DNA of 64,000 nt from positions 3,286,001 through 3,350,000 of the forward strand of contig JAYWIR010000020.1 of assembly GCA_036172245.1 (NCBI GenBank), given 5' to 3'. Shown in pieces: positions 4,858 to 57,690 of the stretch. The position numbers and the translations under genes were made by a program. The stretch's first letter is position 1. Each line of letters starts with the position of its first letter. The notes beneath the pieces are model-generated. The model searched no databases. It saw only the letters and a list, made by a program, of their open reading frames with translations, and was not told where the DNA came from. This stretch comes from Raillietiella orientalis (lineage: Eukaryota).

Positions 4858-4878
4858 CGCGCGTGCGTGCACATATGT
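4799..4878. repeat. (GT)n microsatellite running into GTGC/GC units; ~80 nt of uninterrupted purine-pyrimidine alternation
   Basis: (GT)~26 at 4801-4852 followed by gcgtgcgcgcgtgcgtgcacatatgt, read directly from the sequence. Confidence 0.95.
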
Positions 4879-7780: not shown

Positions 7781-8043
7781 CAGCGTTTCCCAAACTGTTC
7801 CCCGGAATACTAGCGTTCCGCGGAAAGTCCATAAGTGTTCCGTGAAAAATTAACATGACTGAAAATTTCGCATAATGAAAGTTTGAGAATAAATGTTTGC
7901 TTTATTTTCTTAACTCTTATATCTACTTGCTTGATTAATTTATTATTAATACCTCTCTACTGCCCCGTAAGATAACTAAGGTATTCCGTTAAAATTTCAG
8001 GATTTGTGAAGCGTCCGTCATGGGAAAAGTTTGGGAAACGCTG
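7781..8043. mobile_element. Non-autonomous hAT-type MITE, copy 1
   Basis: Perfect 16-bp terminal inverted repeats CAGCGTTTCCCAAACT / AGTTTGGGAAACGCTG around an AT-rich, non-coding interior (tttgagaataaa, ttattaata, aaggtattccgtta, aatttcagg) shared with the copy at 35580-35870. TIR resembles hAT-Charlie-type ends. No clear target-site duplication at this copy. Confidence 0.8.
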
Positions 8044-8199
8044 GTCCAGGGATGCTTCTCCCGCGTGCAACCACGTTTCTTCCAGATGGCCCTGCCTACC
8101 GGTTTCCACTAGCAGAGTGCCATATTCTGCCTCTGGAGCCCTAAAGCATCAAACGTAGGTTCTGGATGAAGAGAGGAACTGGGTTGTTTCCCTACAAAA

Positions 8200-26531: not shown

Positions 26532-26830
26532 CTGCGTCCGGAAATCGACTACGGCGTGCCTACGATCCACTCCCGTCTAACCGGCCGACAGAGTTGCGGC
26601 GGCCTCATCGTTCAGCCCCACGCACGAATGCTTACGGAGAACTGTCACGTGATCTGCCCGCGACGTAATTTGCCTGTGGAAACCAAAAAAGCCGGCCGCA
26701 CCCGACGCCGGCGTTGCCGATTGTTGCCGGCCCCGTCGAACGCCTACTTTGCGCTTCTCCCCGCTGCTACGCAACCCAACTTTTTGCCTCCCCCTCCCGC
26801 CGTTTCCCCCCGAGAGCAGTAGCTTACAAG
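26532..26830 (-). promoter_or_regulatory. CpG-rich segment: possible promoter / non-coding first exon of the UGT gene
   Basis: CpG-dense block with a minus-strand CAG|GTACC donor (GT at 26531-26530) and an E-box GTCACGTGAT near 26644. An acceptor (ttttccacttgcag, ending 25119) lies 49 nt before the UGT ATG, implying an upstream untranslated exon. Linking the two is inference. Confidence 0.25.
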
Positions 26831-32800: not shown

Positions 32801-32871
32801 TTCCTCATCACGAAGTGGTGCTAGGCAAGCATAAGAAGAGACGGAGTAGGCGCCGAGATGGGGGGAGGAGT

Positions 32872-33327
32872 GCGTCGTGGGTTTCATGCGTTCCTTTTCC
32901 ACAGGACGACGCTGTTAGGCTTCGAACGTGGAACCGGTGGAAGCTGGATGCCCGAGTGATTGGAAGTGGATCCTCTGGGATCCTTCCAGGAATCAAGGAA
33001 CCGTTTCCCTTTTATGTGGAAATGGAGCTATCCTTCCCCTTGAGAGGGGACCCTTCATCTCGTACCATGGAGCTGGTTGATTGATTCTCCCTCCAGAGTG
33101 CCAAGAAGCGCGCTGCTCTCTTCGGGGAAGCGTTCTTCAGAGAAAATTGGGGAGCGTCCCTTCGAGAAGTGGATCTTTCGGGGTTCCCTTCAGAGAAGAA
33201 AGGAGGAGCGGCCCTCTTCGTGGGACCCCTCTGGAGAGAACGAGGAAGAGATGGTTCCCTTCAAAGTTCCCTCTCAGGAGTCGGAGAGGAACCTCTGGAG
33301 CCTTCCTGGATTCATGGGGGTGGTCCC
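32872..33327 (+). mobile_element. Dispersed SINE-like repeat, copy A (diverged or truncated head)
   Basis: Colinear blocks shared with 53474-54106: gcgtcgtgggtt, tccttccaggaatcaagg (32981-32998), tctcttcggggaagc (33117-33131), gggttcccttca, ctctggagagaa, ccttcctggattcat (33301-33315). Confidence 0.7.
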
Positions 33328-35579: not shown

Positions 35580-35870
35580 CAGCGTTCCCCAAACTGTGTT
35601 CCGCAGAAGGTCAATAAGTGTTCCGTTATAAATTATGAAAATCAGTGTATTTTAAATGCTATTAAGTTTATTTTTTCATTTTCCATGTGTTTTGTTTTAC
35701 ATAATTAGAATTTGAGAATAAACGTTTGTTTTGTTTTCTTAACCCTTATATTTACTTGTTTAATTTACTTATTAATAATGTCTACCTACCCTGTCAAATA
35801 ACCAAGGTATTCCGTTAGAATTTCAGGTTTTGTGAAGGGTTCCGCCATAGGCAAAGTTCGAGAAAGACTG
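35580..35870. mobile_element. Non-autonomous hAT-type MITE, copy 2
   Basis: Left end CAGCGTTCCCCAAACT, degenerate right end AGTTCGAGAAAGACTG, interior colinear with 7781-8043. Flanking 8-mers ctcaatgg / ctctacgg match 6/8, consistent with a decayed 8-bp hAT target-site duplication. Confidence 0.78.
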
Positions 35871-36652
35871 CTCTACGGAATCCTCGAAAGAATTTCCGAG
35901 GACACGACTAACCTTTTCTTGCTGTGCTTGCCTTCAGGGATGTTTCGGAATAAATTCCCGCGTATTCTTATGGTAGACGATCGGACGAGGTCATAAACGG
36001 AAGGTCGTTTCTTCTCCCGAGCTGTTTCTTTCTCTTTCTTTTCTCTTTTTCTTTTCTTTCTTTTTTTTTTTTTTTCTTTCACGGTTCAGAGTTTAAATCG
36101 TAATTGCGGAGTAAAATGGCAGCTCGTATTTACCTTACTGCCATGATGGCTGCTTTCCGATGGAAAGAGCTCCCTAATCTCAAATTCTTCCCACGCCCAT
36201 TCCAGTTCCTTCGGATGAAATTGCAGAGTTGCAACTGTCGGCAACTTCCGGAAGCTCTTTCTGTTGAATATTAAATTGTTCAAGGCAATGGCTCTGAGTA
36301 TAGTTCTTTCCGGAACAGAAATGGCAAATTGGAGCGGAATCCTTAGGATAACCGGGAAACTCAGCAGAATAAATTTCTCCACTGCTTTTGGTACATGATA
36401 GGATCTTTGCATCCCACTTTTCCATAACAGCCTACGAGGAGAAGAACTGAATTGTTCTGATTCCTCAACAGAGACGGGATGGAGTTGATTCCAGAGCCCT
36501 CGTTGTCTGGAGAATTTGTAGGTGGAGGCACCAAGAAGAAATATCGATACTGAAGAAAGAGAAAACCATTTAACGGCTATGAAACGAGAAACGGTTCTCC
36601 GTTGTCATGTCGACGAGACTGTTCGGGGAGATTTTTTTGATCCTGATGTAAG

Positions 36653-38490: not shown

Positions 38491-41400
38491 AATATTTTTT
38501 TTGGCAAGCCCTTACTATGCACAGCTCTCCTATCGCCACGAAAATTGCATATGTCGTCACGAGTGCATCTATTTGGCAAAGCTTCGTTTTGGTAGAAGTA
38601 TATTTAAATAGAAAATTATGCGTTTTAAGATTTGACTAAATGCTAATGATCTCATTCCTTAAATACATTTTAGCATACATACGCAGGAAAACGAAATGAA
38701 ATGCTTTCTAATAACACCAAATGAACTTTATGAAGGGTCCCATAAATTAATGAAGTTCAAAGACCATGCTGCTATATAATGCACATTTCTGACAACTGGT
38801 TTCGACTTTGCTGATCGATTAAGGCCTCTCGTATTTTGTAAAACCAAACGATATACCAAGCTTAACAGAAGTTTCTGAAAAAATAAATAAATAAACTAAA
38901 ATTATTTTAATTTCACAAAAATACATCTATTGTATCTATTTCGCAAAACTAATTTTGTAAATGAACAACAAGGAATAGCAAATACATGATGTGAAGTAAT
39001 GCTAAAATTAAAAGACAAATGAATCGAATGAAGATTACTGCTTTCCTTCTCTCTTAAAAACAAACTACTTCTCTCTTAAAATAGGACTCTCCGTTGACTC
39101 TACTTTTCTTGGGTTCGGGAAAAACTCTGAAAATACCGTATAATATACTCGAGATTCATCGACAGTGTTCTACTACCCAAAAAGCTTGTTCCCATCATTA
39201 TATTTTGATTCCATCATGATATTATGTAGACAGTCAGAAGAGTGGGAGCATTGAACTCTAGGAAAAACTTTATAACAGATGAACCATTCTCGAGAAATCA
39301 TCTCGAGAAATCTTTGCAAAATGAAGTATCCAGAAAGTACTCCTGTGGAAAAAACATTGTTTTGAAGTTGAAAATGGAGAAATGTATGCATAACAGCTTC
39401 AAACAGAAAAGCCTTATTTGTTCTCACTATGCAAGTCTTCTTTATAATAAGACCATATGGATAAACTTTATTTTGAATACAATGCAATCATTAAACATTA
39501 TCTGAATATAACGTAACCATAATGAAGAATGATTAGAACTCTGTTCCTTATGGTGATCAACATTCAGTGAATAGATTCAGTATTTTCAGTAAAAAATTCC
39601 AAGATGAAAAAACAAAACAAAACATGACTTAGGGAGATATGGATTTGAAGTAACAAAATTCTCGGGATTCTGGTTCAAGAGAGAATCTTGGATGTATTTA
39701 GAAATTATTTATTTAACTAGAAGATCTAGTAGAGTTTGGTTTAATTACACGTCACTTCTATCTCATGTCGGTTACACTTCACTCACTTCAAGACACGTAG
39801 TCAATATCAACCAATTATGAGGAAAAAAAAACTGTAAGTCATGCATTGAATAATCGAGAAGCATTTTTTGGAACCCAAACAATACATCTTTTCATTCCTA
39901 AGTTTATCAAAATTTGTAGTCATAATATTTTCTGAAATGTTTTGATGGGCTTTGACCTCAATTTTGGAAAATATTGGGAATCACATTATTTTAGGGGAAT
40001 TCTAAATTACCTAAAAGTTGATTGGCAACTCTACTGATGATATATTCTCAATTAAAAAGAATCCCTGGGGCCTGTTGTTGCTCAATAATTTATCGAACTT
40101 TGTTAATGTTCTTGAAAGTCACGTAAATAAGGGAACTTCTCAGATGTTGAAGATCACGTAACAGTTAAAGATGAAAGAAGGAGATGAATACAATTTTACA
40201 AATCTTGAGCAGCTTAAGCCTTGTCCCATTCCTTAACCCCAAAGAACAGTGTAACATGAGCCATGCACTCGAAAATGCGGTATTGATCTTTTTAGAATAT
40301 TTAAGTTTTCTGTAATCCCGAGTAACAAAAGGAAAAAAAAAATAGTTCTCATTATTTTACAGGATGTATTAAAGAATGAATGTTGGATGCTTGGCAGTGT
40401 GATTGAGTTTGATTACAAATGTTTTGCAGCATGACTCACAAAAAAAATATGTATCCTTCGCTACAAAACCAAATCAGAACACAAAAAAACGAATGATAAA
40501 AATGAAAGGCTGAGGAGTGCCAGATAGAACAGTAGAATTAATAGGTTCTTTTCTGATTCTGAGAAACTTTTGGGTATGAGAATCTTTAGATACATGCAAT
40601 TCATGAGAAATTTAGGGACGAAACGCAAGAAGAATTTAGGAGAAAGAAAATTAAAGCAGATTAGAGAACAAAGTAATATCAAAACAGCTAGGCTAAAAGA
40701 TGTGAAGATGTAAATATTGGATAGTTCTGAAGTAAATAGAAAACCAAATATTAAGCAGTGAGGATACAGTAGCTTCCAGTAATGAAATTTGCATCAAGAG
40801 CAGTTGATTTTTGTTTGGGTGAATGTGAGTTTGAGTAGTAGAGCATATTCTAAAGTATTGGACATGGCTATTTGCAATATAAGTTTTCCCAGTGACAAAG
40901 TAATTAGGAAAATGATGATGATAATTGAAGCAATCCTGATAATAAACCATTAATTTAATCATGGTTGAGGAGTATGCATTCCATTTTTTTGAAAAGCCAA
41001 ATAATGATACAAACTTTCCAAAATGATGGAATGGAAGAAAATGATGTGATGAGCCATATGGCAAGGCTTTTTAAAAATTCATCCTAATGATTAATATTTT
41101 TTAAAAGAGAAGGTCGTTTGATAAAAAAATTTTCAAGAGAAGATGGAAGCAATGTAATGTGTTTTCAAAGATAAAAGGAAAACTGTAATAGCTACTTTCA
41201 AAATTAGAGATGCGATTGTATGTGTAGGTCTAGGCATCTTAGGTGTTAAAATGAATTTGGGATTCTAGGGAGTCATGATATTCATTGCAAGAGTTATGTT
41301 GTTATATATCTCGACATTTTATGGATGAAAATTCAGCAAAGACGAGATAATAGAATCAGTATAAAATAGCTATTTTTTGTGTTTGTGTGAATAAAAATCA

Positions 41401-41737
41401 AATTGTTAGTGTACTTTGTTCTACTGTATTGTAGATGATTATGTTGTAGTAGTTATGATGACACAGTGTCACGAAATGAATTGATGTAACAAATTTTCCA
41501 GGTACTGATTTCTTTATATATTTCAATGCATTCATAAAATCATTTGAGTGATGTTTGCATATACATTCAAGCAGGAGAAATTGTTTTTGTTGTGTTAAAA
41601 CAACATGATCCAGAACTGCACTCCAAAGCATCTGAAGTATTACAGTCAACTTTTACGTTGTATTTTTTCTCACTGTAAAAGAAGTAAGACTCAGTCAGCA
41701 AATATTTTTGATATGAATCCTCTGGCTTCTCTGTAAA

Positions 41738-44700
41738 ATGGGTGTAAGTGGATTGTGGTCCTTATTAGAATCAGTTTCCAAGAAAGAAAGAATTGTAGAT
41801 TTAAGTGGAAAAGTACTTGCTGTTGGTAAGCTATTTAATTTTATTTTGATTTAGCAATAAAGTGTAAAGACCTTTAAGTATTTGTAAGTTTTTATCTAAA
41901 GTAGCATATTCCAACTGCTAAAAGCCTGCATGATAAATGTTACTAGCAACTTCTCAGGGTTCCAGAAAAATTTTCTTTATTCCTTGTGCATTTTTTGTTA
42001 TTAAAGCAGTAATTACATTCAAGTATTTGTGGTGTTAGTTTTCTTGATTTTTATTCTAATTTTTATGTTTGATACTTCACTGGTATACAAACATATTCAT
42101 CCAAACAAGAACTTTGGGAGTATTCTATAGTTCATAATCGACTATGAGGTGCTTTCCTTGTTGCACAGCAAACTGTTTGTTTTTTCAATAGAAACACTGA
42201 CATAGTTTGTTACAAAGAATAAAGCTTCAAAATATTTTTGGAGGCCATCTTGCAAATTAAAAGCAAACCTCTCATGCAATAAGTTCACAACTAAAAGTTT
42301 GCCTATTCTTTTGGTTCTTAAAAATTTGTCGAATTATTGGTTTTGAATTCTCAGGAAGGTCAACTCAGCATTAGTAATAAAAATTTGTAGGAAATGGCAA
42401 TGCATCCACTTCATGCAATATTATGCCTTTATAGATCAATTAATGTCTGCTAATGCTGTATATACTTTCAGAGTTTTCCTTTTGAAAGGTCTGAAGTTTG
42501 TAGGCATTCTGTGCTACAAGATATGTTGACACAAGAATAAACATTCAAAATCCCATCTGTTATCTGAATATTTTAGTATCCACAAATTATTAGCTGCAAG
42601 GTTAGCCGTTATTTTCTGAGAGAACATTGGTTTGAAGTAACAAAATTAAATGTTGTCATGTGTTTTTCACTTTTCGTTTCTTTTTTCTAAAAGCCAAATA
42701 TTAGCTTTTCTGACAAAGAAGTTGCTGTATAGTTTCTTTTTCAGAAATTTTTACTAAACACTCATTTTCTTTGCATATTTCTCTCTCCAATCTTTGATGT
42801 ATATATATTTGAATACGAGTATTGCTTATTATTGCCTTGTACCAATTTAGAACTTTATATTAGATATCTAATTAGTGCATATAAAAAATATGGTTCAATC
42901 CTTTCAACTTTCTGACTTTAATAATTAGAAGAAGTAATAACTCCGGAAAGATTTTTTTTACTTTTAACCAAAGAATCAGATGCTTAAAAAAAGACAATAT
43001 TGGCTTGTTTTTGAGCTTCAGTTTATTGTGCTTTATGTCCTGTGCATGTCATTTCATAGAACAGAAAACAGTTTTACTTTTTTTTTTTTTTCATGAAAGT
43101 ATGATGCATATAGTCAACTGAAAATAGCATGAACCCAGAACATAAAATATGTTTAGCCATGTACAAGCAGCAGAGTATGCCCGCATATTAAATACAAGTT
43201 GTTTCATTTTCCAAAGTTTTCAAAACAAATATGGTTGACTCGGTTTGTGATGCTTTATTTCAGTATTCAATGAAAACGTAAAGCTTTATTTAGCTTTCAT
43301 ATTTTCCTCAGCTACATAACCTCATTTTAATTACTGGTTGCTCCCTTCCCAGCCTTTTTGAGCTTTCTCACTTTTAAAAGTGGTTGATGCATTCCCTACG
43401 TGTATTCGATTATATAAAAAGGACCATCGAGTCCCCTTAGTCTAGATTTTAGAAGATTGCATAGGCCAGTCTCCCAATAATGTTTTCTGATTCCAGATGA
43501 AGAAAATCGTACTGGGTCTTTTTGAGTATTCAGAAACTTTTTTTTCACTCCTTTTCAGAAACATGATTCTCCATGACTTGTTCACTCCTTTTCACTCATG
43601 ACTGGTTACCCTCATCTCTTTTCTCAGAATTTCCATGTGATTCTCTGAGAGGATTGAACTACAGGAATGTTTATTCCCGTTTCCTTGGCTCGGAATCCGA
43701 ATGGGGCTCCTATGTCATCGTTTTTGCTCCGTGGTCCTCAGTTATCTCTAGCTATCCTCGCATCATGAGGAAATGTCTGCCTTAGACTTCACATGTAACA
43801 CTGACGCAATTGCCTGTATTCCATTTGGTGTGCCCGTCTTGCAATCTTTCCATTCATCAAGGCGTCAGCGCATTTCAGAACGCAGATGGCTGATTGATTT
43901 TAGGTTGAATCCAATGCCCATGCAGTTTTGATCTCATCTGAGTTGTCGGCTAGTGGACAGTAGATTTCGTATCACCAATTTTCAATGGAGAAATGAAAGT
44001 AGCAATTTCTTTTCAAAGGGGTAATCATGTTGTGCTCAACGAATTCCAGAAACTGCAGGACTCGGGCCTTCTCATTGTTTTCATGAGATTATCCTTGCCA
44101 TCTGGAGAAAAACAGTATCATAAGGATAATTGTAGACGATGAGATGATAGATGTAGACGATGTTCGGAGCTCAGGCTCATCAAAATGAGTCCTTTTGCGC
44201 AGCATCGAAAGGCAAAGAGTAGCACCCTCGGATGTATTCGTACTGCGACCCTGTAAGCTCTCACAGTGTGTTGCCCTGTGCTGTCTGTTGCATGTTGAGT
44301 ATTACCGACAATTGGCTCCCCTTGATCGGGTCTTGAGATTAAGTCGCACCTGCGTTAATGCAACTGGGCAATAGGAAATGGAATGAATACTCAACTGGTG
44401 GCTCCCACCCTTGAACTTTACCATCCCGTTTTCTGTTCTCCTATTTAGTACAATTTTTCGATGTAGAGCATGGCCTAGAAACAAAAAAGTAGTTCGTGTA
44501 CCACCATGACAGCATGGAAACAAGTGACAAAAAAAGAACGTGTTTTGCAGCAAAATTCAGGTCCGCAGAAAGCAAGAACCACACTCGTCTAAGAGGCAGC
44601 AAGAGTTTTCATGCAGCTTCCTTGATTCGAGATGCTCCCAAAATTCAGGAAACTTGCTCCTTGAACAGAAAACTTTCGCAGCACTCATAGGAAGAACCCA

Positions 44701-47700
44701 TGTCTCGGAAATCGAAGTTCTGAAGCACTTTGCTCACACTTTATCCAGTTCTCTGTCATTCTCGCGTCGTTTCTCAGATTTCAGCTAAGCAATCATGCCT
44801 TTAGCGCATTCTGTGATGTGCGAGACTAAGCAGTCATTATTCATGATGACTTTGCTTCCCTTCTCATTGCAAATCTTAAGGCTCCTTTTCTGTCGGCTTT
44901 GAAGTGAACAGTCTCTTTGGGATCATCCTGTTGTCATTCTCTCATGAAGCGTAGCCATTCGATAAATCTAGATCCGTACATCTCGAAGTGCTACTAGATC
45001 AATCTGGACGCTCCAGGACTGTCGCTGCGTTTCCGCCTTCCTGTCCTCGTGGGATACTCTCCGAAGTTTGTCTGGTTACAGATGTGTCTGTTTGGCTGCA
45101 TCAGTCCATGAAAGGCATCCGTGACAAACAAGGGAACCCCATGAACTGCGCTCACCTTCTGGGGCTGTTCTACCGCGTCCTGCAGTTATTGCTGAGTGGT
45201 ATCCAACCTGTATTTGTCTTTGATGGTGGTGTCCCAGAGCTGAAGCGACGCACAATGGTACTCTGGGAATTTTTGTCAGTTTTCATGAGACTAGCCATTT
45301 TGCAGTTACTGAGGAACCAGAGGAGGAAACTGTCCCTTGATGAGGAAAGTGAAACGACTCGTAAGCTCTTGTGCACTCACCTAGAAGAGAGGCTGCTGGC
45401 GCTAAGTGCTGGGCTGCCCCTCCCACCCATGCCTGCTGTGTTTACAGCAAAGACGAATGACTCCATTTTTGAGCTGCCACCATTCCCTGCTGGATTGGAT
45501 GCATCTCTTGGGTATCCTTCAGTCCCTTCCCTGCCAGTTCTAACTACAGAACCAGGATCCCCTTTGGAGAGGATGAGTCGGCAAGATCCTTGGAGAAAGA
45601 TGTGGACCTGGATGCAGTGGATGTGGATGCTGAAGATTTTCGTCAGCTCCCTTTACGAATCCAGCACGACATCCTCGTGGATTTGTGCAGTGCGAGAAAG
45701 AGAAGCTCTAGGAAAGACATTGAGCTCATGCCAGAGGTGGGAATGAATGGGATGTCAGGCAGTGCTGTGGACTGACCAGGTTGGCTGCCTCAGGGTGCCA
45801 ACCAGTTCAGTTCATTCCAAATGCAGAACCTTCTGCGGCGGCGGCGCCTTCAGGAAACGATGGAAGCTGTGGCTCACCAACTCGGTGAGGAGATTATCCG
45901 AACCCAGAATCCCACACTGGAACAGTTGCAGGCACAGCTTCCTCAGTATAGGGAGACTTCTGTCACCCGTGTGGTATCTCAGGATGCCACCCATTTGCTG
46001 CTGCTTTCGGGTAGGATAGTTTTGCTACTGCTGCTTGTGCCTACTGATGTTTATCCACTGTTACAGGCAAGTGCGATCCCAGGGTACCTGTGCAGAATGT
46101 GCCCACGCTGAAACTACCCTGTAAGGAAGAAATTCCTGGACACCTGCTTATCACTTCCCAGAAATACAGTTCCTTAATCAGCTTAGAAGGAAGAGGGGAG
46201 GATAAGGATCTCCAGGGAAATGGGGACATCTGGGAGGAAGCCCACTCATTTGAGACTCATCAAGACTCAATGTGCCCTGCAGCTTTCTCTGCTGATGAAT
46301 GTAAGGAGGAATCTGGCACCTCCGAGGACAAGAGTGCCTGTGGATCGGAAATCCCTTACCACCCAATGGAGGAAGAGGAGGAACCCATTCTCCGGGAACT
46401 ATATGTTCCAGAAACTGTCTTCACAACTCCTGATGTGTACATCAAGAGTGACAGTGACTATGTTGACAGGGACCATGGATTCAGTGCTTCCTCCAAGGCA
46501 TCCAAACCATTAGGAGTGCCTCCATGTCAACCCATTGAGGAAAAGGAGAAACCTATTCTCCAGGAACTGTGTGTGTCGGAGTCTGTATGCACAATCTCTG
46601 AAGGACACATTGAGAGTGTCAGTGACTATGTTGACAAAGACCAGGGGTTGAGTGCTTCCTCTACAGCATTCAGACCATCAGAAGCGCCTCCATTAGAGCC
46701 TGCTTTGTTTTGGGAGAAAGCGAAGGAAAAGTATCCATTATGTTCCATCATTGATTCTACAGCGGCTGTCCTGGATCTTCAAGATCCTTGTCCCTCTAGT
46801 TCCACTTCTGGAGGATCTTCATCTCTGAATCCCCATTTTTATGCAGACCAAGGTGTAGAACCTAATGTTGGTATGCAGGAAAGTGTGGATGGGGCTATCA
46901 GCTCTACTTCATTGTCTCCTGGTATACCTTGTGATTCCTGTGAGTCTGTTGTGGAAGGTCAACTAGCTGATCAACAGGATGCTTACACGTTTCTGAGGAA
47001 GGGTGGTCTTCTGTCACAGAAGAGAGAGAAACAAGAACAAGAGAGAAGCCGGCAGGAGCGATCAGGTAGCTCCTTGTCCAGTCAAATTATTTGGGATGCC
47101 AAGGTAACACCAATTGAGGAGAATCTGTCTCAGGCACTGTATGCTTACTCCTTATCTGCTCTACTAGGAGCTTCTTCAGCTCTTTGGCGTGCCTTATGTT
47201 GTGGCACCCATGGAAGCAGAGGCGCAGTGTGCCTACCTGGATCGTAAAGGTCTCACACAAGGTACTATCACTGATGACAGTGATGTATGGTTGTTTGGTG
47301 CCCAACGGGTCTACCGCCATTTTTTCCGACGAAGTCGTGATGTGGAGCTGTACTCAGCAGCAGCTGTCCAGCAGCATCTAGGCATGTTTGAAGGGAGAAA
47401 AAAATGCCACTGATCTACTGTTGTTACAATACAGGTCTGGACCAGAGACAGCTGGTGTTATTAGCCATGCTAGTGGGTAGTGACTATACCACTGGTCTGA
47501 AGGGTGTTGGACCTGCCACTGCAGTAGAGATCCTGCGAGAGTTTCATGGAGATGGTCTTAAACCTTTGCTCTCCCTGAAAGAATGGTGCCACTCTGGATA
47601 TCCTGGTTCCTCATGTACACCCCTTCGACGGAAGTTACGTTCACTGGTCCTGGCCCCAGGTAAAAGGGGGTGAGAAAGCAGATGCTACCACTTTACCCAT

Positions 47701-48182
47701 TTTCTCCCCCTAACAGATTTCCCTGATGGAACCATTGCTGATGCATACTTACACCCTGTGGTTGATGTATCCTTGGCTCCTTTTTCATGGGGCATTGCAG
47801 ATGTACCTGGCTTGCTGAAGTTTGCCAAGAAGCATATGGGTTGGCCTTTTGTGAAGACAGAGCGGCTACTAGCGCCCCTTGTTAAGGGTGTCCATGCTGC
47901 TACCTCTGCACATGTGGTAACCAAGGATATGACAAGGGACTTTCTCTGTTAAGGGATCATTCTCAGAGGCCCATCAACTCCTACTTCTTGAAAGAAAATG
48001 TCTCCAGCCGGGAAGGAAAGCAACCTCTAAGTCAGCACATGCAGCTCACATCATCTAAGCAGAAACGAAGATGCCAAGGAAAGAACACCAGTCAACGTCA
48101 CCATCCAAAGAAGCATGCCAGAGGACAGACACGTCCCAATTCATTGGCAAAGCTTTCTGAGAGCTCCAGTGGGGAGGAGTGA
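41738..48182 (+). CDS. ERCC5: XPG/Rad2 structure-specific nucleotide excision repair endonuclease, ~920 aa, 10 exons: 41738-41825, 45082-45257, 45306-45511, 45556-45736, 45794-46010, 46067-47103, 47168-47381, 47435-47659, 47717-~47916, ~47967-48182 (last junction ambiguous)
   Basis: N-domain [10 protein letters not shown]...[14 protein letters not shown]...[22 protein letters not shown] and [10 protein letters not shown] spacer motifs; I-domain [25 protein letters not shown]...[11 protein letters not shown]2[16 protein letters not shown]...[17 protein letters not shown]-like QRPINSYF; basic C-terminus. Acidic catalytic residues are present. Confidence 0.93.
43500..44560 (-). mobile_element. 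Decayed non-LTR retrotransposon RT fragment inside XPG intron 1 (antisense)
   Basis: Minus-strand FKGGSHQLS...SYCPVALT (resembles FKGG.....NYRPVALT) at ~44420-44350, followed by AYR/GRST with a frameshift at ~44260-44240. Boundaries approximate. Confidence 0.5.
45512..45555 (+). other. 44-nt XPG intron 3 with U12-type donor
   Basis: Donor GTATCCTTC; TTCTAAC at 45538-45544, about 12 nt before the AG at 45555. Removal is required to reach the [11 protein letters not shown] frame. An alternative in-frame AG at 45549 would give 38 nt. The branch site matches the U12 consensus only weakly. Confidence 0.55.
46354..46692 (+). repeat. 168-nt (56-aa) in-frame tandem duplication in the XPG spacer
   Basis: [56 protein letters not shown] vs [56 protein letters not shown]; the DNA anchors cagtgactatgttgaca and agtgcttcctc recur 168 nt apart. 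Confidence 0.9.
47382..47434 (+). other. GC-AG intron (53 nt), XPG intron 7
   Basis: CTAG|GCATGT...ATACAG|GTCTGGAC joins QQHL-G-LDQRQL in frame. The nearby GT at 47386 gives the wrong frame with this acceptor. Confidence 0.75.
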
Positions 48183-48183
48183 T

Positions 48184-48215
48184 GGGGGATACGGGGGTAG
48201 GGGTGGGGGTGGGGG
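48184..48215 (+). other. G-quadruplex-capable G-run cluster immediately after the XPG stop codon
   Basis: GGGGG-ATAC-GGGGG-TA-GGGG-T-GGGGG-T-GGGGG: five runs of at least 4 G with 1-4 nt loops. Confidence 0.7.
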
Positions 48216-48299
48216 ATGCAACAGACAAGAACAACCAGCAAGGGATGTGTGTTTTTTCCCCATCTCTTTTCATTTCCTCCTTCTCCACCCCTCAGCAGG

Positions 48300-49675
48300 A
48301 TGCAGAACTTGATTCAGTCAGTCAAAGGAACTGCCCTTGGGGTCGCCGAGTACCTGACCCCTGTTCTGAAAGTGGGTGCAAAGTTTTCTGCCTCCCATAA
48401 CACACTGCACTCTCTTCCCCCGCAGGAGTCCAGGTTCAGGGAGACAGGCGTGCTTACACCTGAAGAGTTTGTCATAGCAGGTGACCACCTTATCCACCAT
48501 TGCCCCACATGGCGCTGGGTCCCTGGGGATGAGACCAAGAAGAAATCGTATCTTCCCAATGACAAGCAGTTCTTGGTCACTAGGAGGGTACCGTGCTATC
48601 GCCGCTGCCGACAAGTAAATATGGAGAGGGAGAAGGGGGAAGGGAAGATACTTTCTTTCCCCTGTCTTTCATTTGCATCCTGCTTTTCTGTCCCTCGACC
48701 TCCGCCTTTCTCTTACCCTCGTTTTTCTCAGATGGAGTACGATGAGCAGCAAGAACGCGTGATTCACGAGGACGATGACGATGGAGGGTGGGTTGACACT
48801 CACCATTTCACCTCCGCGGACAGGTCAGAGGATGACTTGGAATGCGCGGTTTCGGAGATGGCATTGGAAGAGGTGACTTGTCTGCACCGTTCCTTTTTTT
48901 CTTTCCTTCTTTCCAATTCATTGACTTGAATTCATGAAGTCCTTCCTTACAGGACGGCGATCCTGACGGATGTAGACTGGCTGCTGGCGCGGACAACAGT
49001 TACGACGAGAAAGGAGGCGGCGGTAGAGGGAACGAGAACGAAACCGATGACAGCGATGGGCAGGAAGCATGCGACATGGAGGACTTCGAGGAGAGGCTGC
49101 TAGTGGACCATCTGGATAACGTATGCTCCTTGAGGTTGCCTCCTTCCACCTCACCACTCCCTCCAGGCGGTGGCGATACCGGCTTCTCTCGCACCTGCCG
49201 GAAAAGGTGCTCCGCCCGCAGAGATCGTACAGACCCGCACTTATGATCTGCATATCACCTACGACAAGTATTATCAGACCCCGCGGCTATGGCTCTGCGG
49301 TTACCGCGAGGTAAGATAGGACGCTTCTCCCTCCCTTTCCTTTTCCTCTTTTGGTCGCCTTTTTTATTTATTTATTTTTTTCCTTTCCTCTTCTAGGACG
49401 GAAGTCTTTTGAGCACGGACGAGATGTTCGAGGACTTCAGTCAGGACCATGTCCGCAAGACAATCACCGTGGAGTCGCACCCCCACTTGTGTATCTCCTG
49501 CATGGCTTCCATCCACCCTTGTCGCCACGCGGAGGTGATGCGCAAGATCCTGCAAACCGTTTCAGAAGGAGGAGGCGAACTGGGAGTCCACATGTACCTC
49601 ATCATCTTCCTCAAGTTTGTTCAGGCAGTGATCCCCACCATCGAGTACGACTACACGCAGGACTTCACTATGTGA
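48300..49675 (+). CDS. ATG3: Autophagy E2-like conjugating enzyme ATG3, 330 aa, 6 exons: 48300-48371, 48426-48614, 48732-48872, 48953-49120, 49167-49310, 49397-49675
   Basis: [81 protein letters not shown]; catalytic [35 protein letters not shown]. All introns are phase-0 GT-AG; 993 nt in frame. Confidence 0.97.
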
Positions 49676-52600
49676 AGAGCCTCTGGCATATGCCGCTGAC
49701 CACGCATTCCGACTACCACGCTGCCATCCTCGTCCTCCCTTTTTTTTGTTTCTCTGCTACTGCCAAACTGTGTACCTGTGGTCCCAGAATAGGGCGCAAG
49801 CTCCCCAACTCGTCCAGCCTTGTGTATTAGACTGAGACGGGAGTGCGCAAGAGGTTATCCACATCGGCATGTTATGCATCATCCAATCCTCCCACATCCC
49901 CGGGATCGTAAGCAAATCTTGTTTATGTGCAAGAGCTGGGTTTCTGTCGCCCGTGGGACCTTGCCCACTTCTGTCTTTCGTCATCGTCTTTAAACCTTGT
50001 GCCTGGAGGCTTTACAAACCGCTGACATCTTCCTTTTTTTGTTCGATGTGTATTTTTTTCGGATTGGGTTCGGCCAGTTTCTCGCAGTGATGTTCCTCCT
50101 CGGTTCATGTTTGGGTGTATTCTGCTGCAGCTCCTGCACAGTACGGTACGCTTTCGCTGTCTTTGCCTCTTTAGATCCAAACACAAAAAGATTCTTGGTA
50201 GTCGTGGGTTCTGGGTAATACATGCAAAACCAGACCTGGGCACCGCTCTCGCTTCCGGAGGCGGATCCTGGAAGCCAAAAGCCCCCAGCTAAGCTCGACC
50301 GTGCCATTCAGCTGCGAATATTGACGATGCGTGTGCAAAATCAAAAACTCCGTGTGACCTCGCAATTGCAGCAGGCATTTTGACAGATTCTCTAGGCAAT
50401 GAAGATAGATCTCATCTCTGTGTCTTGACACGCACATGATCTGAACACAGAGGCAGCCCATTAAGAGTATCGCCTCTCTGTGCCTTATCTTGTTTTTGGT
50501 ATTTTCAAGGAGAGCAGTTCCGGAAAAAAAAAAAACGCTCCGGAAATGAAGCCTTAAATTGGAAAAGAGCTTCTGGCGATGAACGAGACCTAAACAGAAC
50601 TACTGGACACTTACAACAGCCAGCGAGGATACTGCTTGTCTTATCTTTGAGCTCAGAGACTCGAGAAAAGGCTGGCAAATGAGCAGTCGGTATATAGGGT
50701 TCTCCCGAAGTGCCCTATCCAAGAAAAGTTTGCATACACTCCAGTCTTAGGACTTGACAGCCATCCTATGCGAGCCATAAGATATGCCCAGTTGACACTC
50801 ATAGTAGGGAAAGATGCTAGAAAAAAAAGAGAAATGCCATCCTTTTGAAGATGTGGCAGACATACATTGGTGTTGAGTTTCGAAGAGTGAAGCTTATTCG
50901 TTAAGTTTGGAAAGTGAGCACAAGACAGTTTGCCAGCACCTTGGAGGTGCTAGGGAGCAGATCTGCCGACAGTTTGTTTCCATAAAAGGCGAACGCAGCC
51001 TGGTGGTACGGGTTGCTTTCTCCATAATCTATACTTTCCTCGTCAACAACACTGTTTTAGTGTACTTGATGCTGCATGGGAAGGATGTTTGGCATCCAGT
51101 AGCGGTGCCTCCTCTGTGCCACTTTCTTTTTGAGAATTTTACTCGCTTGAAGCTGCTCCCCAATTTTATGGATCGAGGCTTATTTAAAGAGCACCAGAGG
51201 GATTCAAATAGTCATTTTTTATAATGGCTGTACAGTTCGATCAAACAGCGAGCTCCTCGTGCAGTACAGTGTTACAGCTACCTATCTTCGGGTACCTGAT
51301 CCCAACAAGCATTCAGATAGATGCACGTGTTTGTCTCATTGTTCACAGTGAATTTACTCAAAAAAACAATCAAGCATCTTCCAAAGCAATCTCTGGAGGC
51401 CCTCACATCTTGAGGGCAACAGATTGGGCATTGCGAAGCGAAATGCCAAATCTGCAATAGTAAGAAACAGCCTACTTCCCAGTAAGGAAAAAGGCATATC
51501 TGCGGACTCCAATGGTTGCAGGACTGAAAACTGCAACCGCTCCTCCTCGTTTCCAATTCCACAAAACTGCCTCACCCACACTACTACTCAACTCAAGAAG
51601 CCGAAGCAGCACATTAGCTAGCTCACGTGGGACCAATCTCCTTCGCTCATGCTTAAGAGATTCCGAATAATGAGATCTGATCTGGGGATGCAAAACCGGA
51701 AATTCCCTAACTGAGAGATCCAAGGGAATAGTTCAGCCATTCAGCAAATGCATCCTGACTAACTAGGACCAGGAGGAGAGCAAAAGCCACAAAAGAGGGA
51801 CGGGGCTCTGAAGTAGTTCCAAACTTTATTGCTCTCAACTTACCCTCGGACTCCATCCAAATCCAATCACAAAACAGAGTTCAAGCAGCAACAGAATTTA
51901 GCTTGAGCAGCATCGCAGAGGGACTGCGAGAAAGGAAGACCACTCTCGCCTCGTACATGAACGACTCGCAGAATTCCGCGTTATCGTCGCGCGTTAGTCT
52001 CTCATCGTCCCGCTGCAGGCTTTCCAGGCCTGCAGAGAACCCACCTTCCATCACCTACAAGACCACTCCCACAACTATTGAAACTTTCGGCCGAGCAGTG
52101 TGCCGCATGCAGACCGTCTTCTCATGGCTCTGCGCCTTCGACGGGGCTTGCGAAGCTCGCTAAGTTCCCGCGGACTACCGCCAACACTTCCTCGTGCCAG
52201 GGAGAATGTTGCGATGGGAAATGTCTCTTCCTCACAAAAAGATTCGGTGTATCACACAAGTACTTTTGAGCTTTTCCATCACCACGGACGCATTCTCGTC
52301 CAATTGCGGCAGTACTGAATGCTTCTCTCTTCCAACAGTAACCCTTACCCCACAACAGAACTGCTACTGGGCCACACTATGAGCTAACAATCTGAACTGT
52401 CTGAGCTAATGAATCTGGAGTCCTACCATCGTGACGCTGTACCTCACCAGGTGGAGATCGGAGATGTGAGCACCGGGAATCACCGCCATGGCTTCGTTCA
52501 TGTGATCTCCGGCTGACCAACCAACAACACTCGTCCCAACTTTCGTCATCCTTACTGCATGAGCAAAACACCAATTGGGTTGTAAAAGTCTAAGCCCAAG

Positions 52601-53422
52601 CAAGCCTATCTTGCATCCCCACTCGGATCATCAGCAATACATGATCATCGTACCTGCACTGCAGGTGCCGTCCTTGGAAGGGTCTTGAGCTTTGCGTGGT
52701 CTCATCAAGCTTCTTGAGTTCCGACCAACGAGACTTCGACGGCATTCGATGAATCAATCAGCTGAGAGTTCTTCAAAGGAGCCCTTTAGCAATAGTTGGC
52801 CACGGTGTACAGGGCACGCTTGGCGATGTTGGCAGTTGCAAGAACCCCATGATTCGACAACACTCCAACGGATCCAGTTTGATCGCTTTGCATGCAGAGG
52901 AGAGGATAATGAGCATGACGATATGATTATGAGTTACTGTATCAAGGTACTTTGACGAGGATGGTGATTTGTAGTAATCTTTGTCTTATTTCATGTATTG
53001 GTCTTGAACGGAAGAATCATTCTGTGGGGAACTCGTTGATGACGGTGACTAATGATAGAATGGGTAATATTTATTACCATGCGGAGGCTTTGAAGATACG
53101 AATGCTCAGATTTTGAAAGCGTCAAATTCAGTTCGTTTGCAACCCCCCAAAACCCAATAACTACCGTTATTAAGAATAAAGAATGGTTCTTTTGATGTAA
53201 ATATACTGCAACACATCATCCCTTCATCTAAGTAACCCTGAGAACAATTTATTGCTGAGCTAAACTTGAGCATGCCAATGTTAATGGCACCTGTTCGGAC
53301 TCGAATTGTTCCATATAAATAAGCAATTGCTTTCCATCATTGAATACGGCATCTTTTTTATTCTACATTAAGACAGTTGGATATAATCTTTATAAGATTA
53401 GATTAATCTTTGTAGGATCTGC

Positions 53423-54106
53423 CCTTGTCAGAGGCCGTGTGGTTACGGTGGTCTCCGCGCGTGCCACCAGCAAGCGTCGTGGGTTCGAACACTCCGAAGG
53501 AATCGACGCAGTGCATTGTGGGTCCCGAGTTCACTCCACAAAATGACGCTGGCTGGCCTGCATTCATCCGGGTGCGGCACTGGTAACGGTCAAAACCGGG
53601 TGCCCCAATGAGGGCCGGGACAAATGGGAGTCGACCTCCGTGTCCTTCCAGGAATCAAGGTGTGGAAGCTCCCCTCTGGTTGTGGAGGAGAGGACCCCCC
53701 ATTCCGGGAGGGGACCTTCTACGTCGTTCTGATGGAGTAGGTATGTCGCCACCACCTCTCTAGAGAGTGCAGAGAAGCGAGCCGATCTCTTCGGGGAAGC
53801 TGCGTCCTTCTAAATTTCGGAAGCGTCCCTTCAAGTTTCTCTTCAGAGTAAACAGGAGCGAATCCCTTGCGGGGGATACCTCCGGAGAAGAAATTCCAGG
53901 ATCAGATCCTTTCCGGGTTCCCTTCATAGAAGAAAGAGTGGAGTGGACCCCTCGGGAGTCCTCTGGAGAGAATAAGGGAGGAGAATTCCCTGCTGGATTC
54001 CCCTTAGGAGACAACCAGAGTGGAGGTGATCTCCATTTCCGGGGATTCCTCCCCAGGCGTGAGAGGAACGGACTCCGAGTCCTTCCTGGATTCATAGGGC
54101 GGACCC
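53423..54106 (+). mobile_element. SINE-like repeat, copy B, with tRNA-derived (Pol III) head
   Basis: A-box-like AGGCCGTGTGG (53432-53442), hairpin ggtggt...gccacc and B-box GGTTCGAAC (53482-53490); the head resembles a tRNA-Leu/Ser 5' end (GTCAG..GGCCG.GTGGT) and T-arm (CGTGGGTTCGAA). The body is colinear with 32872-33327. Confidence 0.6.
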
Positions 54107-54649
54107 CTCCAGGGATGGCCCCTATCTTGAAGAATTACCCACCCTCGGATGGCATGGAACCGTGTCGAAGAACTGCGAAGACAGAAAAGAAGGATTCCCA
54201 TCATCCAGGGGATAAGGGGTGCTAATTCATTACCATGTCTGCGGGATTAGTAATTCATGAATGTGAAGGAAGTTAGGATTTGGTTCGTGTTAGAGATTGG
54301 CGTGAAATCTACTCGTTTGAGGTTATCTATAATCTTAGTAGTAGGAATGTAAAGTTCGATGAGGGAGTTGAAAACCGGCGTAGCACGTCAGAACAGAAAT
54401 GGTGTTCTCGAGCATTCCGTATTTCCCAGTTGTATTGGGAAGCATCAGATGAGTCACGGAAAACCCTCGAGAATGACAGGCTCTCTAAGCGGACTAGGCG
54501 GGGAAGGCAAAGAGGTGGGACAAATTCCTTCTTCTTGCCATGTTTGCATTTTGGAGTAACTTGCACATGACGGTGAATCGTCATCGATTTTTTGAACAAG
54601 CTGACGAACGAAATGCAATGAAATTATCACGCTCATTTAATGAACTGAA

Positions 54650-55350
54650 AAGCGCCTAGCTCGAACAGAATCTCCTCCGGACTTGAACAGGAAGCTGATG
54701 CTGAGCAATCTGAGGACCTCCATTGCCGAAACGAACGAGGAAGCGTGGAGGCTCTCGTGACTGAGATTGAAAAAAAATGCAACGCTGAAGCTTACACGTG
54801 CAAATCTATGCAGATGGCTGCGTACGGGAATCATGAAATATGGAAACGACGGGATCGACACAGATGCAGGTCCTACAGGAAGGCAGCATACGCGGAAATC
54901 CAATTTCATAAGCAGCAAATGCTTTTTTTGCCCAGCTTTCAATCAGCTTGATCGAGTGAGCAGTTGATGTGCACAAGTTGTCGCCTTATTTATGTTTGTT
55001 TTGCGAAGACAAACTCCATGAATGAGTGCATCTGGACCAAAGCGCATATCTTTAAGAGAATCGGCAGAGGGGAATCGACTTTCCCGAATCATGGACACTC
55101 GTGAAAGAGTTCTTGGATGCGTGCATTCACTTTCGCGGCACATAAAATGGCAGAAGCTTTTCCTTCAGACCATGCACTCAGATTGGCAAGAACGAGCAAG
55201 CGGAATTCGAAGCCTCTTGAAGATTAGAAACTTGTCAGCAGAAACGAGGCGAACCACTCATCATCATCCCCAAACTCGCGCAGTTTCAAGCTGGAATTCG
55301 GTGAAAACGACCCCCGTGTTTCACCTCTCTGCAGAAGGATCGGATTGCGC
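54650..55350 (+). mobile_element. Possible decayed APE-endonuclease region of a non-LTR element
   Basis: Scattered plus-strand peptides IAET (~54722), KRRDR (~54845) and ECIWTK (~55024) in APE-like order but in different frames; weak. Confidence 0.25.
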
Positions 55351-57690
55351 TCAAACATACCAGAATTGCCAATAGACTTCAAAAAAGTAACACAGAAACC
55401 GAAGATAAAATCAGAACTTCAGCAGAACGAGATTGGGAACCAAAGAAAGGAGTTATGGAGCTTCCATCCGGGTAATGTTAATCAGCAGTTCAAACTGTGG
55501 CAATTTTCAAATGCTCGTCCCCAGAGGTCAACAGGTAAAATTCGGGGGGCAATATATGGTTTTCTCCAAACATTAAGAGAATACTTCAAGCAGCTTAAGC
55601 AAACAGGAAGCACGATCTGCGTGAGAAGCAGCAATACCAAGAAATTGAAGATTCTTCAGCATGCCTGACAATCCATGACGATGCCTGCCGTGAGACTTTG
55701 AGAAAGCGAGAGCAAACAGTCCACGACGGGCTAAGACTGACTACTGAAGAAAGCCAAGGTAATTTTCACGCTGAGAGAGAGAAAGCAGAAACAGCTTGTG
55801 CAAAGACGAAAGTTTCCGGACTGATGAAGCTTTTTCTAGCTCCATAAATGAACGGCAGAGAGGTAAAGATGGCATTTTCGTTGCTCAAGTTGACAGGGCA
55901 GTGCTTGTGACGGGGAAAATAAAACACGAATGACTAGAGCAGGTTTGATTTCGGAAACCCGACAGTATAAGTCCATCATAAGCACTCAGAGAACTATGAG
56001 ATTAGCCGGTAGTCCAGTGCAGCTCAAGATGACTGAAAAAGTTATTTACTCCTACCTGTTGCGAGCAGTAATACACATTTCATGCTATTCAGGCGTGAAA
56101 AAAAGAATGATTGAAGAATGTAAGCAGAGAGCTGCTCGTTTCCAAGCAACATGGTATTTCTTTTGAAAAGCTATAAGAGTATTGCAAACCATCAACTTTT
56201 TTTGTTGTAATGTACTTATGGAAATAGATAGTTATGCTTTTAGCATTTCCTGCATGAAGTTTTCTGCTTCTTCTTAGAAGCTTTATTTATGAAGAAAGTT
56301 GGCTCTCAAAACGCGACATAATTTTACATTATGGAATGATCGACACCACAAATGAATTGATGAATCAAGTAAAACACGGAAACTTTCAGATTATGGGTGA
56401 ATCTGGACATAGTCTTAACATTGTATTCTCAACCGCTCGTCTCCCCTATTATGGTAAAAATTCCTTGACCTTTAGAAGCGCTGAATATTGTTCCACATTT
56501 TTAAAAATTTTGGAAGGGTTTTTTTATAATTTTACACCAAAGGCAATACGGAGGATAGTTTTCTTGATAAATTGGAAAGATTTCAAAGAAACGAATATCT
56601 TTAGGAAGTTGTCCAATGTTCCTACAGAACTTGCAGTGGAATGTTTTGATTTTTATCTGTTTTAGATCTTATAGTTATATGTTCGGAGACGATATATTCA
56701 TGAATATCTTGAATTCTGCCAAGTATACAAAAATGCTATTCTTGGTTTTCGTGTTTTTCCATTTTATTCCACTTTTAACATTTCTGGCATGAAATATATT
56801 ATTAAAACATGTGGAAGTGTGAATGCTTTCAACTGAATGGTTTTTCTCTTGCTTCCTTCCTTTCCTAAATTCGTCATTCCTCCATTATTCCTATTTATAT
56901 ATTTTAGGTTTTTCGAATAGTTTACGTAAATTACCTATACAACATTCCCAGGAAACGCAAATGAATATAGTCAATTCTAACGAATATAATCAACTCTGTC
57001 TGAAACTTTATATACGAAGTAGCTTTTAGAAAATTGATAAGAGCTGAAGGATTCAAACAATTCAAAGTTCTTAGTAAACTTAAATTATTCTACACGATAA
57101 GTACAATCTTTCTAATTAGTATTTATTATGAATATTTAGCTAAACGTGCAATCTACGTTGCTGCTGTTTTTTCAGTGAGCTAATTGTGTGCTTTCTAAGT
57201 ACATTTACTGCATTTGAATTTGAGTTTTACATTTATCCGATTCTCTCTCTCCAAACCAGTAGTAAAAAAAAAAAAGTTTTCACTTCACCTATGTCGATTG
57301 GTACCTCTGACTTGAAAGTGGCGGATATGCATTGTGGTTTTGCACAACAATCTTCTTATTTAAACAAGATTTTATAAAGGATTTGAAGTTTTGCTTGTGA
57401 CAGCGCAATCCGAAAGAATCATCCCTCGATTGCAAAATTTTTGGATTAATATCTGTAAATGTGGTGTCCGAGACTACGAAAACTACTGAATTATAAATTG
57501 TATAATGCTGTTACAATGACCCAACGCAGTACCACCATAGTAAATCAGTTTGCCCAGTATTTTCAGTTTCTGTATCAATAACGTATCAATATTTAATTTT
57601 TAGATTCAAATTTATCAATTAGATACCTGATTTGAATTTCTTAACTCTGCATGTCAACTCTAGTTGAATGTTTTGTGGTTGAGTGAGGCT

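Follow-up and report, generated by a model that had tools for sequence, protein, structure and literature searches.

A closely spaced XPG–ATG3 gene pair with a splice-acceptor-like sequence before the ATG3 start codon

Gene Content of the Locus

The window, as the whole 64 kb stretch of DNA analyzed here is called, carries an XPG gene and an ATG3 gene head to tail on the + strand (Table 1). XPG is a DNA-repair nuclease and ATG3 an autophagy enzyme; they are unrelated housekeeping genes, and no observation at this locus points to DNA repair and autophagy being functionally connected. The upstream gene is predicted to encode an XPG/ERCC5 nuclease as its domains occur in the usual order, with PF00752 matched on exon 2 (E 6e-15) and PF00867 following (E 2e-22). 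Exon 1 has AT-rich surroundings, lies 3.25 kb before exon 2 and ends at a visible donor, G/GTAAGC; a seeming remnant of the XPG N-terminus at 44973–45081 has no Pfam support and was dropped. One exon alone contributes about 340 coding codons. The frame of the last exon is fixed because the intron before it appears as a joint in RNA; a protein database search with this exon, the C-terminal tail, returned no relatives.

The downstream gene is predicted to encode the E2-like enzyme ATG3 on the basis of the Autophagy_act_C domain (PF03987), matched on three exons, together with a co-linear N-terminus: the ATG at 48300 is aligned by tblastn to residue 1 of Limulus ATG3 (P0005), and the homologues all begin at the corresponding Met. 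The six-exon model remains open up to a stop codon at 49673–49675, and its last exon is 76–80% identical to the best animal ATG3 matches over at least 96% of the exon; the 120 ATG3 matches listed all carry PF03987 only. Around 37 ATG3-bearing loci of other organisms, found by a scan with ATG3 exon 2 (best identity 76%), tblastn placed XPG nearby in none, and no metagenome contig was confirmed when the XPG penultimate exon served as the query.

RNA joints were drawn from one public run of low coverage (X1; 5% of sampled words), whose contigs come from a relative that is approximately 91–97% identical; a further joint and a loose end, both close to repeat-masked sequence, were left out. These contigs confirm introns, and among them neither a leader-bearing contig nor a chimeric XPG–ATG3 RNA was seen. 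None spans 48079–48302, and the contig bearing ATG3 stops at 48303 and carries no loose letters there, which bears neither for nor against any reading of the junction. Scans of the window gave no Rfam family and no tRNAs, and a bacterial promoter and terminator scan was set aside as irrelevant to eukaryotic DNA.

Table 1. Features of the XPG–ATG3 region; positions are those of the window.
Feature	Position	Strand	Basis or remark
XPG exon 1 (MGVSGLW...)	41738..41827	+	Motif scan; Pfam XPG_N profile positions 1–31, E 3.7e-4
XPG exons 2 to penultimate (N domain, spacer region, I domain)	45082..47916	+	Pfam XPG_N, XPG_I; ORF pieces; internal intron borders resolved in part
Last XPG intron, 50 nt, GT..AG	47917..47966	+	Joint in relative's RNA contig, run X1
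Last XPG exon, 71 codons + stop TGA (48180–48182)	47967..48182	+	RNA joint, open frame
Five G-runs	48184..48215	+	Microsatellite (GGGGGT)3.8 at 48193–48215
Second stop TAG in XPG/ATG3 frame	48198..48200	+	Absent from the original prediction
Two GGGGTGGGG GT-box-like motifs	48200, 48206	+	Motif scan
A/C-rich stretch, 13 A + 7 C of 28	48217..48244	+	Candidate upstream part of a non-canonical poly(A) site (putative function)
GU/U-rich ATGTGTGTTTTTT	48245..48257	+	Candidate downstream element of XPG 3'-end site (putative function)
Pyrimidine tract, 39/42 Y	48252..48293	+	Contains Inr-like TCATTT (48270) and TCT-like motif (48264)
Tandem CAG-CAG, candidate 3' splice sites	48293..48298	+	Exon would begin at 48296 or 48299
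ATG3, 6 exons, 330 codons	48300..49675	+	Pfam, tblastn with P0005, RNA joints, open frame
ATG3 exons	48300–371, 48426–614, 48732–872, 48953–49120, 49167–310, 49397–675	+	
Twin GU/U-rich element ATGTGTATTTTTTTC	50046..50060	+	One-mismatch twin of ATGTGTGTTTTTT at 50047, about 370 nt after ATG3 stop

The Intergenic Spacer

The XPG stop codon and the ATG3 start codon are separated by a spacer of 117 nt (48183–48299), and both are in frame 0, an agreement expected by chance one time in three. The other known genes of the window stand 3–16 kb apart, making the XPG–ATG3 spacing exceptional for the window. The original prediction had already placed the XPG stop, the ATG3 start, their common frame and the 117-nt gap, and had described a spacer with G-runs, a pyrimidine tract, CAG-CAG directly before G-ATG and no AATAAA or ATTAAA; every coordinate was confirmed and each feature was found in place. 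The junction is real and tight, and is of an already known kind.

A search of 48183–48299 for AATAAA, ATTAAA and 13 other variants found none; this is not diagnostic of a missing 3' end, because AATAAA and ATTAAA are likewise absent from the + strand throughout 44001–53174, a region that includes 3.5 kb past the ATG3 stop. XPG may have a separate 3' end within the spacer, as suggested by the GU/U-rich element: ATGTGTGTTTTTT has no other exact match within the window, and its near-identical twin follows the ATG3 stop. It had been argued that an ATG3 promoter and the 3' end of XPG could hardly both be accommodated by the spacer; the tight spacing is borne out, but the exclusion is not forced, since the A-rich and GU/U-rich stretches of 48217–48257, the GT boxes and the Inr-like TCATTT all fit within the spacer. 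Three AUGs are found before that of ATG3, at 48182 (overlapping the XPG stop as UGAUGG), 48216 and 48245; the ORFs from the first and third run beyond the ATG3 start, while the second is in the ATG3 frame and would extend the ATG3 N-terminus by 28 residues. The interval 48248–48299 contains no AUG.

ATG3 intron 2 is also 117 nt long, with a G-rich 5' third and a pyrimidine-rich remainder, and the spacer is built alike. Homology between the two was considered and rejected, since 7 of 300 half-preserving shuffles aligned locally as well as the real pair (score 27) and six introns had been tried; judged by alignment, the likeness is one of low complexity. A spacer RNA structure was also rejected: pairing of the G-runs with the pyrimidine tract is calculated at -51 kcal/mol, but shuffled sequences fold equally (z -0.55).

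Splice Acceptor and Donor Sequences

The 3' end of the spacer is supported as an acceptor-like 3' splice site. The tandem sites have 20/22 and 19/22 upstream pyrimidines, lie behind a 53-nt AG-free zone and show C at -3, which is also seen in five of six reference acceptors; the reference set consists of six introns, four of them taken from RNA joints, of which one has imprecise ends, and two positioned from homology. At least 19/22 upstream pyrimidines are found at only 7 of 882 AGs in 44000–56000; two of the seven are the tandem pair and three are the ATG3 acceptors at 48731, 49166 and 49396. None of four other gene starts checked has a comparable acceptor, so start codons in this DNA do not generally carry one. 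The earlier view that the spacer ends like an intron is thus upheld insofar as the 3' splice site looks genuine, and its suggestion that a spliced leader or a distant leader exon would be joined there is plausible. Pyrimidine tracts of at least 40 nt at 90% or more give only 14 rows over both strands of the 64 kb, some of them away from known acceptors; the scarcity of such tracts and the rank of the acceptor are taken as more than chance.

Donor sequences in the spacer are weaker, its GTs matching the consensus at just 3–5 of nine positions. The GGG/GTAGGG at 48197 matches at 5/9, a score shared with the lowest of the reference donors and reached by 37 of 161 unused exonic GTs. At 48179, the GGA/GTGATG required for a fused reading frame matches at 3/9, compared with 5–7/9 in the six reference donors, and is no better than 76 of the 161 decoys. 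A similar GTGATA donor in AP1M1 had been offered as precedent; that donor is unproven, since the frame there stays open for nine more codons to a candidate donor, AAA/GTAAAA, at 13407. Only three GTs in 40000–48300 match the donor consensus at 7/9 or better, two of which end XPG coding exons by frame reading; a search of the same interval for a strong unused donor marking an ATG3 leader exon produced none that was convincing.

Interpretation of the Junction

XPG and ATG3 probably have shared or overlapping transcripts and separate proteins. The specific reading tentatively favored, to which a probability of roughly 0.38 is assigned, is that the two proteins are made from abutting or overlapping transcription units, with an ATG3 leader spliced at 48296 or 48299 by cis-splicing. 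Translation of XPG would end at the TGA at 48180, and its mRNA would probably be cleaved and polyadenylated in the spacer at a non-canonical site composed of the A-rich (48217–48244) and GU/U-rich (48245–48257) stretches; the twin of the latter after the ATG3 stop suggests that XPG has a 3' end of its own. The pyrimidine tract and CAGCAG would act as a real 3' splice site, at which a short, AUG-free, non-coding leader would be joined to the ATG3 mRNA; this leader would most likely be cis-spliced from an upstream non-coding exon within the XPG transcription unit, under a shared or internal promoter. Splicing would remove all three spacer AUGs and leave the conserved ATG3 start as the first AUG; that an mRNA retaining the spacer would carry these AUGs counts in favor of the spliced leader exon. 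In Drosophila annotation, overlaps between a 3' UTR and the 5' UTR of the next gene are described as routine, as are shared 5' non-coding exons (130 genes; PMC4528330). Several points speak against the favored model: an XPG poly(A) site within the first intron of ATG3 would compete with splicing there, long pyrimidine tracts are found at places with no known acceptor too, the acceptor comparison draws on six reference introns, and the search for a leader exon found none.

It is also conceivable, although somewhat unlikely, that the genes are simply packed tightly, with XPG mRNA ending near 48240, ATG3 transcribed from its own TATA-less promoter starting in the pyrimidine tract, and the acceptor look being coincidental. 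Transcription would then start at the A at 48272 of the Inr-like TCATTT, with the GT boxes 55–75 nt upstream and an AUG-free 5' UTR of at most 50 nt. Matches to TCAKTY (48270) and YYCTTTYY (48264), the two GGGGTGGGG motifs, the lack of AUGs in 48248–48299 and the twinned GU/U-rich element agree with such a promoter, as does the XPG start, which is itself preceded by TCAGTC without an acceptor within 15 nt upstream. These promoter motifs are short, however, and easily found in a pyrimidine tract; transcription arriving from XPG would pass straight through the promoter, and far fewer than 1% of random AGs should show 20/22 pyrimidines with CAG right before an ATG. An unlikelier possibility is a single XPG–ATG3 precursor with the XPG 3' end in the spacer, with the ATG3 mRNA receiving its cap from a spliced leader joined at 48296 or 48299, as in C. 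elegans. The arrangement expected of an operon is present: a co-oriented pair 117 nt apart where other genes are kilobases apart, a strong acceptor that no good donor precedes within the spacer, and a U-rich element placed after the putative 3'-end site and before the acceptor. Spliced leaders are known in pancrustaceans only from copepods and amphipods, and operons have been reported in neither group (PMC7986045); the leaders of Parhyale are listed in PMC5111886. The best named database matches are pancrustaceans: among the best 120 matches to TRMT61A, the legibly named ones are decapods, other crustaceans and insects, with no copepod or amphipod named, which counts against the operon reading. 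A true two-gene pancrustacean operon, in which the precursor is cut at the non-canonical spacer site and capped at CAGCAG by a spliced leader, is rated lower again.

Also decidedly improbable is a mature dicistronic mRNA, which would retain the whole spacer or have it cut to 15–18 nt through the 48197 donor, and from which ATG3 would be translated by reinitiation or internal entry. The 117-nt gap is inside the stop-to-start range of -34 to 319 nt seen in polycistronic-only loci of Drosophila, where 159 dicistronic pairs are recorded (PMC4528330), and G-runs come after the 48197 donor, as they do in ATG3 intron 2; the number of decoys scoring like this donor detracts from it. Resumed scanning or reinitiation, but not internal entry, would require a spacer free of AUGs, and three are present. 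The AUG at 48182 is in strong context, and in every such isoform its ORF passes the ATG3 start by 41–75 codons. The spliced form, earlier thought to be suited to reinitiation, is poorly suited to it because it too retains this AUG, with an ORF to 48461. Reinitiation is also generally inefficient after an ORF as long as that of XPG. Least probable by far is an in-frame XPG–ATG3 fusion made by splicing 48179 to 48295 or 48298, which would remove both stops. The part of this claim that stood is the open joined frame, of 401–402 codons from 47967 to the ATG3 stop, and GTG-type donors are in use here (GTGGGT, GTGACT); what failed is the donor, which falls below all six references. The ATG3 homologues all begin at the Met of 48300, and among the best 150 of 945 ATG3 relatives no fused protein is seen, none exceeding 442 aa and none having an ATG3 segment that begins beyond residue 125. 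In general, the free N-terminal helix of ATG3 is functional and the XPG tail carries nuclear targeting, both of which would argue against the usefulness of a fusion. Human read-through fusions of neighboring genes are known, including BIVM-ERCC5, yet known conjoined genes are for the most part spliced from the regular donor of the penultimate exon (PMC6862657).

If the acceptor is used, XPG 3'-end signals and an ATG3 5' splice acceptor would be packed into about 115 nt; the junction would provide a compact natural test case for separating polyadenylation, splicing and downstream translation in an arthropod. Should the leader prove to be a spliced leader, operons would be shown in arthropods. 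None was found by title or abstract in the literature searched on arthropod operons and spliced leaders, and the XPG–ATG3 pair would then be the first described, in a lineage whose spliced leaders are so far without operons. If an ATG3 promoter instead sits in the pyrimidine tract, the case is an ordinary one.

Comparison with Known Systems

The human conjoined genes described in PMC6862657 resemble this locus in that ERCC5 takes part in read-through with a neighbor and an in-frame chimera is formally possible; human ERCC5 is, however, the downstream partner, and normal exon donors are mostly used there, in contrast to the weak cryptic donor at the stop seen here. Operons of the C. elegans type, as outlined in PMC7986045, share a gap of approximately 100 nt, 3'-end elements with a U-rich stretch behind them, and a strong donor-less acceptor just before the downstream AUG; they differ in that the XPG–ATG3 junction lacks a canonical AAUAAA, no spliced leader is known for the host, and arthropods with spliced leaders have no reported operons. 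The dicistronic pairs of Drosophila (PMC4528330) are alike in their short stop-to-start distance, within whose range the spacer falls, and in having no canonical poly(A) signal between ORFs, whereas XPG–ATG3 has three AUGs between its ORFs and a very long upstream ORF, and its joint mRNA is hypothetical. Compared with the overlapping and shared-leader tandem genes of Drosophila, the 'rule-benders' of FlyBase (PMC4528330), XPG–ATG3 has a leader exon that is putative; the Drosophila genes are likewise co-oriented and unrelated in function, the taxon is also pancrustacean, and the 5' leader of the downstream gene overlaps the 3' end of the upstream gene or is spliced over it, as is proposed here for ATG3.

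The XPG–ATG3 junction

XPG (ERCC5) and ATG3 do form a genuine junction, one that is unusually tight compared with the surroundings, and the original prediction located and described it correctly; the spacer between the two genes is 117 nt long. Its 5' part contains five runs of G, a (GGGGGT)3.8 microsatellite among them, and then an A/C-rich stretch, followed in order by ATGTGTGTTTTTT, a pyrimidine tract (39/42 pyrimidines), CAGCAG, G, and the ATG of ATG3. The spacer carries a further in-frame stop (TAG 48198), and AUGs are found around it at 48182, 48216, and 48245. AATAAA is missing from the spacer as predicted, but this is a weak argument since the + strand has neither AATAAA nor ATTAAA throughout 44001-53174, 3.5 kb past ATG3's own stop included. 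Run X1, a public RNA run that is the sole related RNA, has a coverage gap at 48079-48302. An RNA folding idea and an intron-homology idea for the spacer both failed their controls.

XPG coding resumes from about 45082; the first exon, AT-rich in its codons and set in an AT-rich region, precedes the gene's GC-rich remainder (45082-48182) by 3.25 kb. The frame at the XPG 3' end has no direct straight-through reading; the last intron (47917-47966; 50 nt, GT..AG) is seen in an X1 contig of a ~91-97% identical relative, and the last exon after it has 71 codons, ending at TGA 48180-82. A PIP-box-like motif, RPINSYF, is present at 47964-47990; the codon for its usual leading Q, CAG 47964-66, serves as acceptor of this RNA-supported intron, so V stands there once spliced. 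The large exon of XPG's own spacer region (46048-47247) has an internal duplication of two similar ~50-residue segments.

The ATG3 start at 48300 aligns with residue 1 of Limulus ATG3, and the model has six exons and 330 open codons; of its five introns, X1 RNA backs four, showing joints for three and a loose end for the fourth. The last exon finds best database matches of only 76-80% identity, with coverage of at least 96% of the exon. No XPG neighbour was found at ATG3 loci from 37 other organisms, and a search for genomic DNA of a close relative found none.

Neighbouring genes

Genes of the window and the first XPG exon
Feature	Position	Strand	Remarks
AP1M1	start 13338	+	
UDP-glycosyltransferase	19.6-25.1 kb	-	
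XPG/ERCC5		+	
XPG exon 1	41738-41827	+	MGVSGLW..., XPG_N profile positions 1-31
ATG3		+	
TRMT61A	start 57691	+	
DUF1358 gene	about 60 kb	-	

Introns in the window are short and GT..AG. Among the best 120 matches of TRMT61A, all those legibly named are crustacean or insect, with decapods at the top (65-67% identity); arthropod clusters are closest to the glycosyltransferase. Together with the modest identity of the best ATG3 matches, these hits lead to the reading of the organism as a pancrustacean that has no closely related annotated species. Within 24995-25069 (- strand), the glycosyltransferase has a pyrimidine-rich stretch ending in CAG about 50 nt upstream of its start codon, which suggests a possible 5'-UTR intron. 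GC content is a mosaic of 31-37% blocks, holding AP1M1 and TRMT61A, versus 46-58% blocks, holding the glycosyltransferase, XPG, and ATG3. The GC-rich blocks 4000-10000, 26000-36000, and 50000-56000 are dense in 100-200-codon ORFs on both strands; ORFs of at least 100 codons there gave no Pfam match at E <= 1e-4 and may be repeats, non-coding transcripts, or unknown genes.

The candidate 3' splice site

The reference set consisted of six introns, four being RNA joints (one with imprecise ends) and two located from homology plus GT..AG borders. In the 22 nt preceding NAG, the acceptors of these six carry 13-21 pyrimidines. The candidate acceptors at 48295 and 48298 have 20 and 19, respectively, with C at -3 and an AG-free zone of 53 nt upstream. 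At least 19 pyrimidines are reached by just 7/882 AGs (+ strand, 44000-56000): three of them are acceptors of ATG3, two are the candidates themselves, and two lack an assigned exon. The last two (19/22 pyrimidines) lie at 44425-44448 in XPG intron 1 and at 51134, 1.5 kb past ATG3. Pyrimidine tracts of such length are rare (14 rows over both strands of 64 kb) and also present away from acceptors; a comparable acceptor within 15 nt was absent at the four other gene starts examined. The site is acceptor-like well above chance, and CAGCAG would probably function as a 3' splice site.

A possible XPG 3' end

Non-canonical cleavage sites can function when the sequence upstream is no more than A-rich, given a strong element downstream. 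The A-rich stretch of the spacer together with TGTGTGTTTTTT looks like such a candidate site; the sole exact occurrence of this element is at 48246, and with one mismatch it recurs on the + strand at 42174 and 50047, the latter about 370 nt past the ATG3 stop. The chance that either of two other matches lands within 400 nt after that stop is about 1%, by arithmetic on a pattern taken from the first site. This suggests that XPG mRNA may end before ATG3, which would count against read-through being obligatory; overlapping genes, an operon, and a plain promoter are all equally compatible with it.

Readings of the junction

The preferred reading, at a probability of roughly 0.38, is that ATG3 has a spliced mRNA of its own and that the two transcription units overlap. 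To be efficient, an ATG3 mRNA should lack 48182-48247, because the ORF from AUG 48182 overruns the ATG3 start (by 41-75 codons, ending at 48461) and, in the unspliced form, in-frame AUG 48216 would lengthen ATG3 by 28 residues; it would then have either a leader joined at 48296/48299 or a transcription start within the tract. A scan of 40000-48300 gave no convincing leader exon; only three GTs there have at least 7/9 donor matches, two of them at XPG exon ends by frame reading. A promoter of ATG3's own inside the tract, which would omit these AUGs and is compatible with the putative XPG 3' end, is considered somewhat unlikely. The same 3' end is compatible with a spliced-leader operon, but passages of PMC7986045 describe spliced-leader trans-splicing in copepods and amphipods with no operons reported there, and this reading is unlikely.

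Donors were scored as matches to CAG/GTAAGT over 9 positions. The original prediction spliced a donor at 48197 to leave 15-18 nt between ORFs, as it indeed does; this donor (GGG/GTAGGG) scores 5, level with the lowest of the real donors, but 37/161 decoys equal it, and in all isoforms retaining 48182 the overrunning AUG overlaps the XPG stop (UGAUGG), leaving a dicistronic XPG-ATG3 mRNA quite improbable. The predicted fusion frame is likewise open, for 401-402 codons from 47967; however, its donor at 48179 (GGA/GTGATG) has 3/9 matches, under all six reference donors (5-7), 76/161 unused GTs in XPG and ATG3 exons score 3 or less, and no fused protein is evident among the best 150 of 945 ATG3 relatives, so that a fusion protein is highly implausible. 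The GTGATA donor assumed for AP1M1 exon 1 is not established, as nine further codons are open to AAA/GTAAAA at 13407 (within 13380-13412). The acceptor-like spacer end (among the top 7/882 AGs) is supported and the two donors are weak; readings outside these five hold the remaining probability.

Comparison with known systems

A literature search gave no paper on an arthropod operon, judged by title or abstract; Parhyale leaders are listed in PMC5111886, and the copepod paper PMC4664967 lacks the words 'operon' and 'polycistronic'. A comparable ERCC5-ATG3 link was likewise not found in the literature searched; BIVM-ERCC5 is counted among human conjoined (read-through) genes in PMC6862657, which describes such genes as mostly splicing from the regular donor of the penultimate exon. 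Passages of PMC4528330 describe overlapping 3'/5' UTRs as routine in Drosophila, with 5' non-coding exons common to 130 genes, 159 dicistronic gene pairs, and stop-to-start distances of -34 to 319 nt at loci with only polycistronic transcripts. The XPG-ATG3 junction is a further example of an already known gene arrangement.
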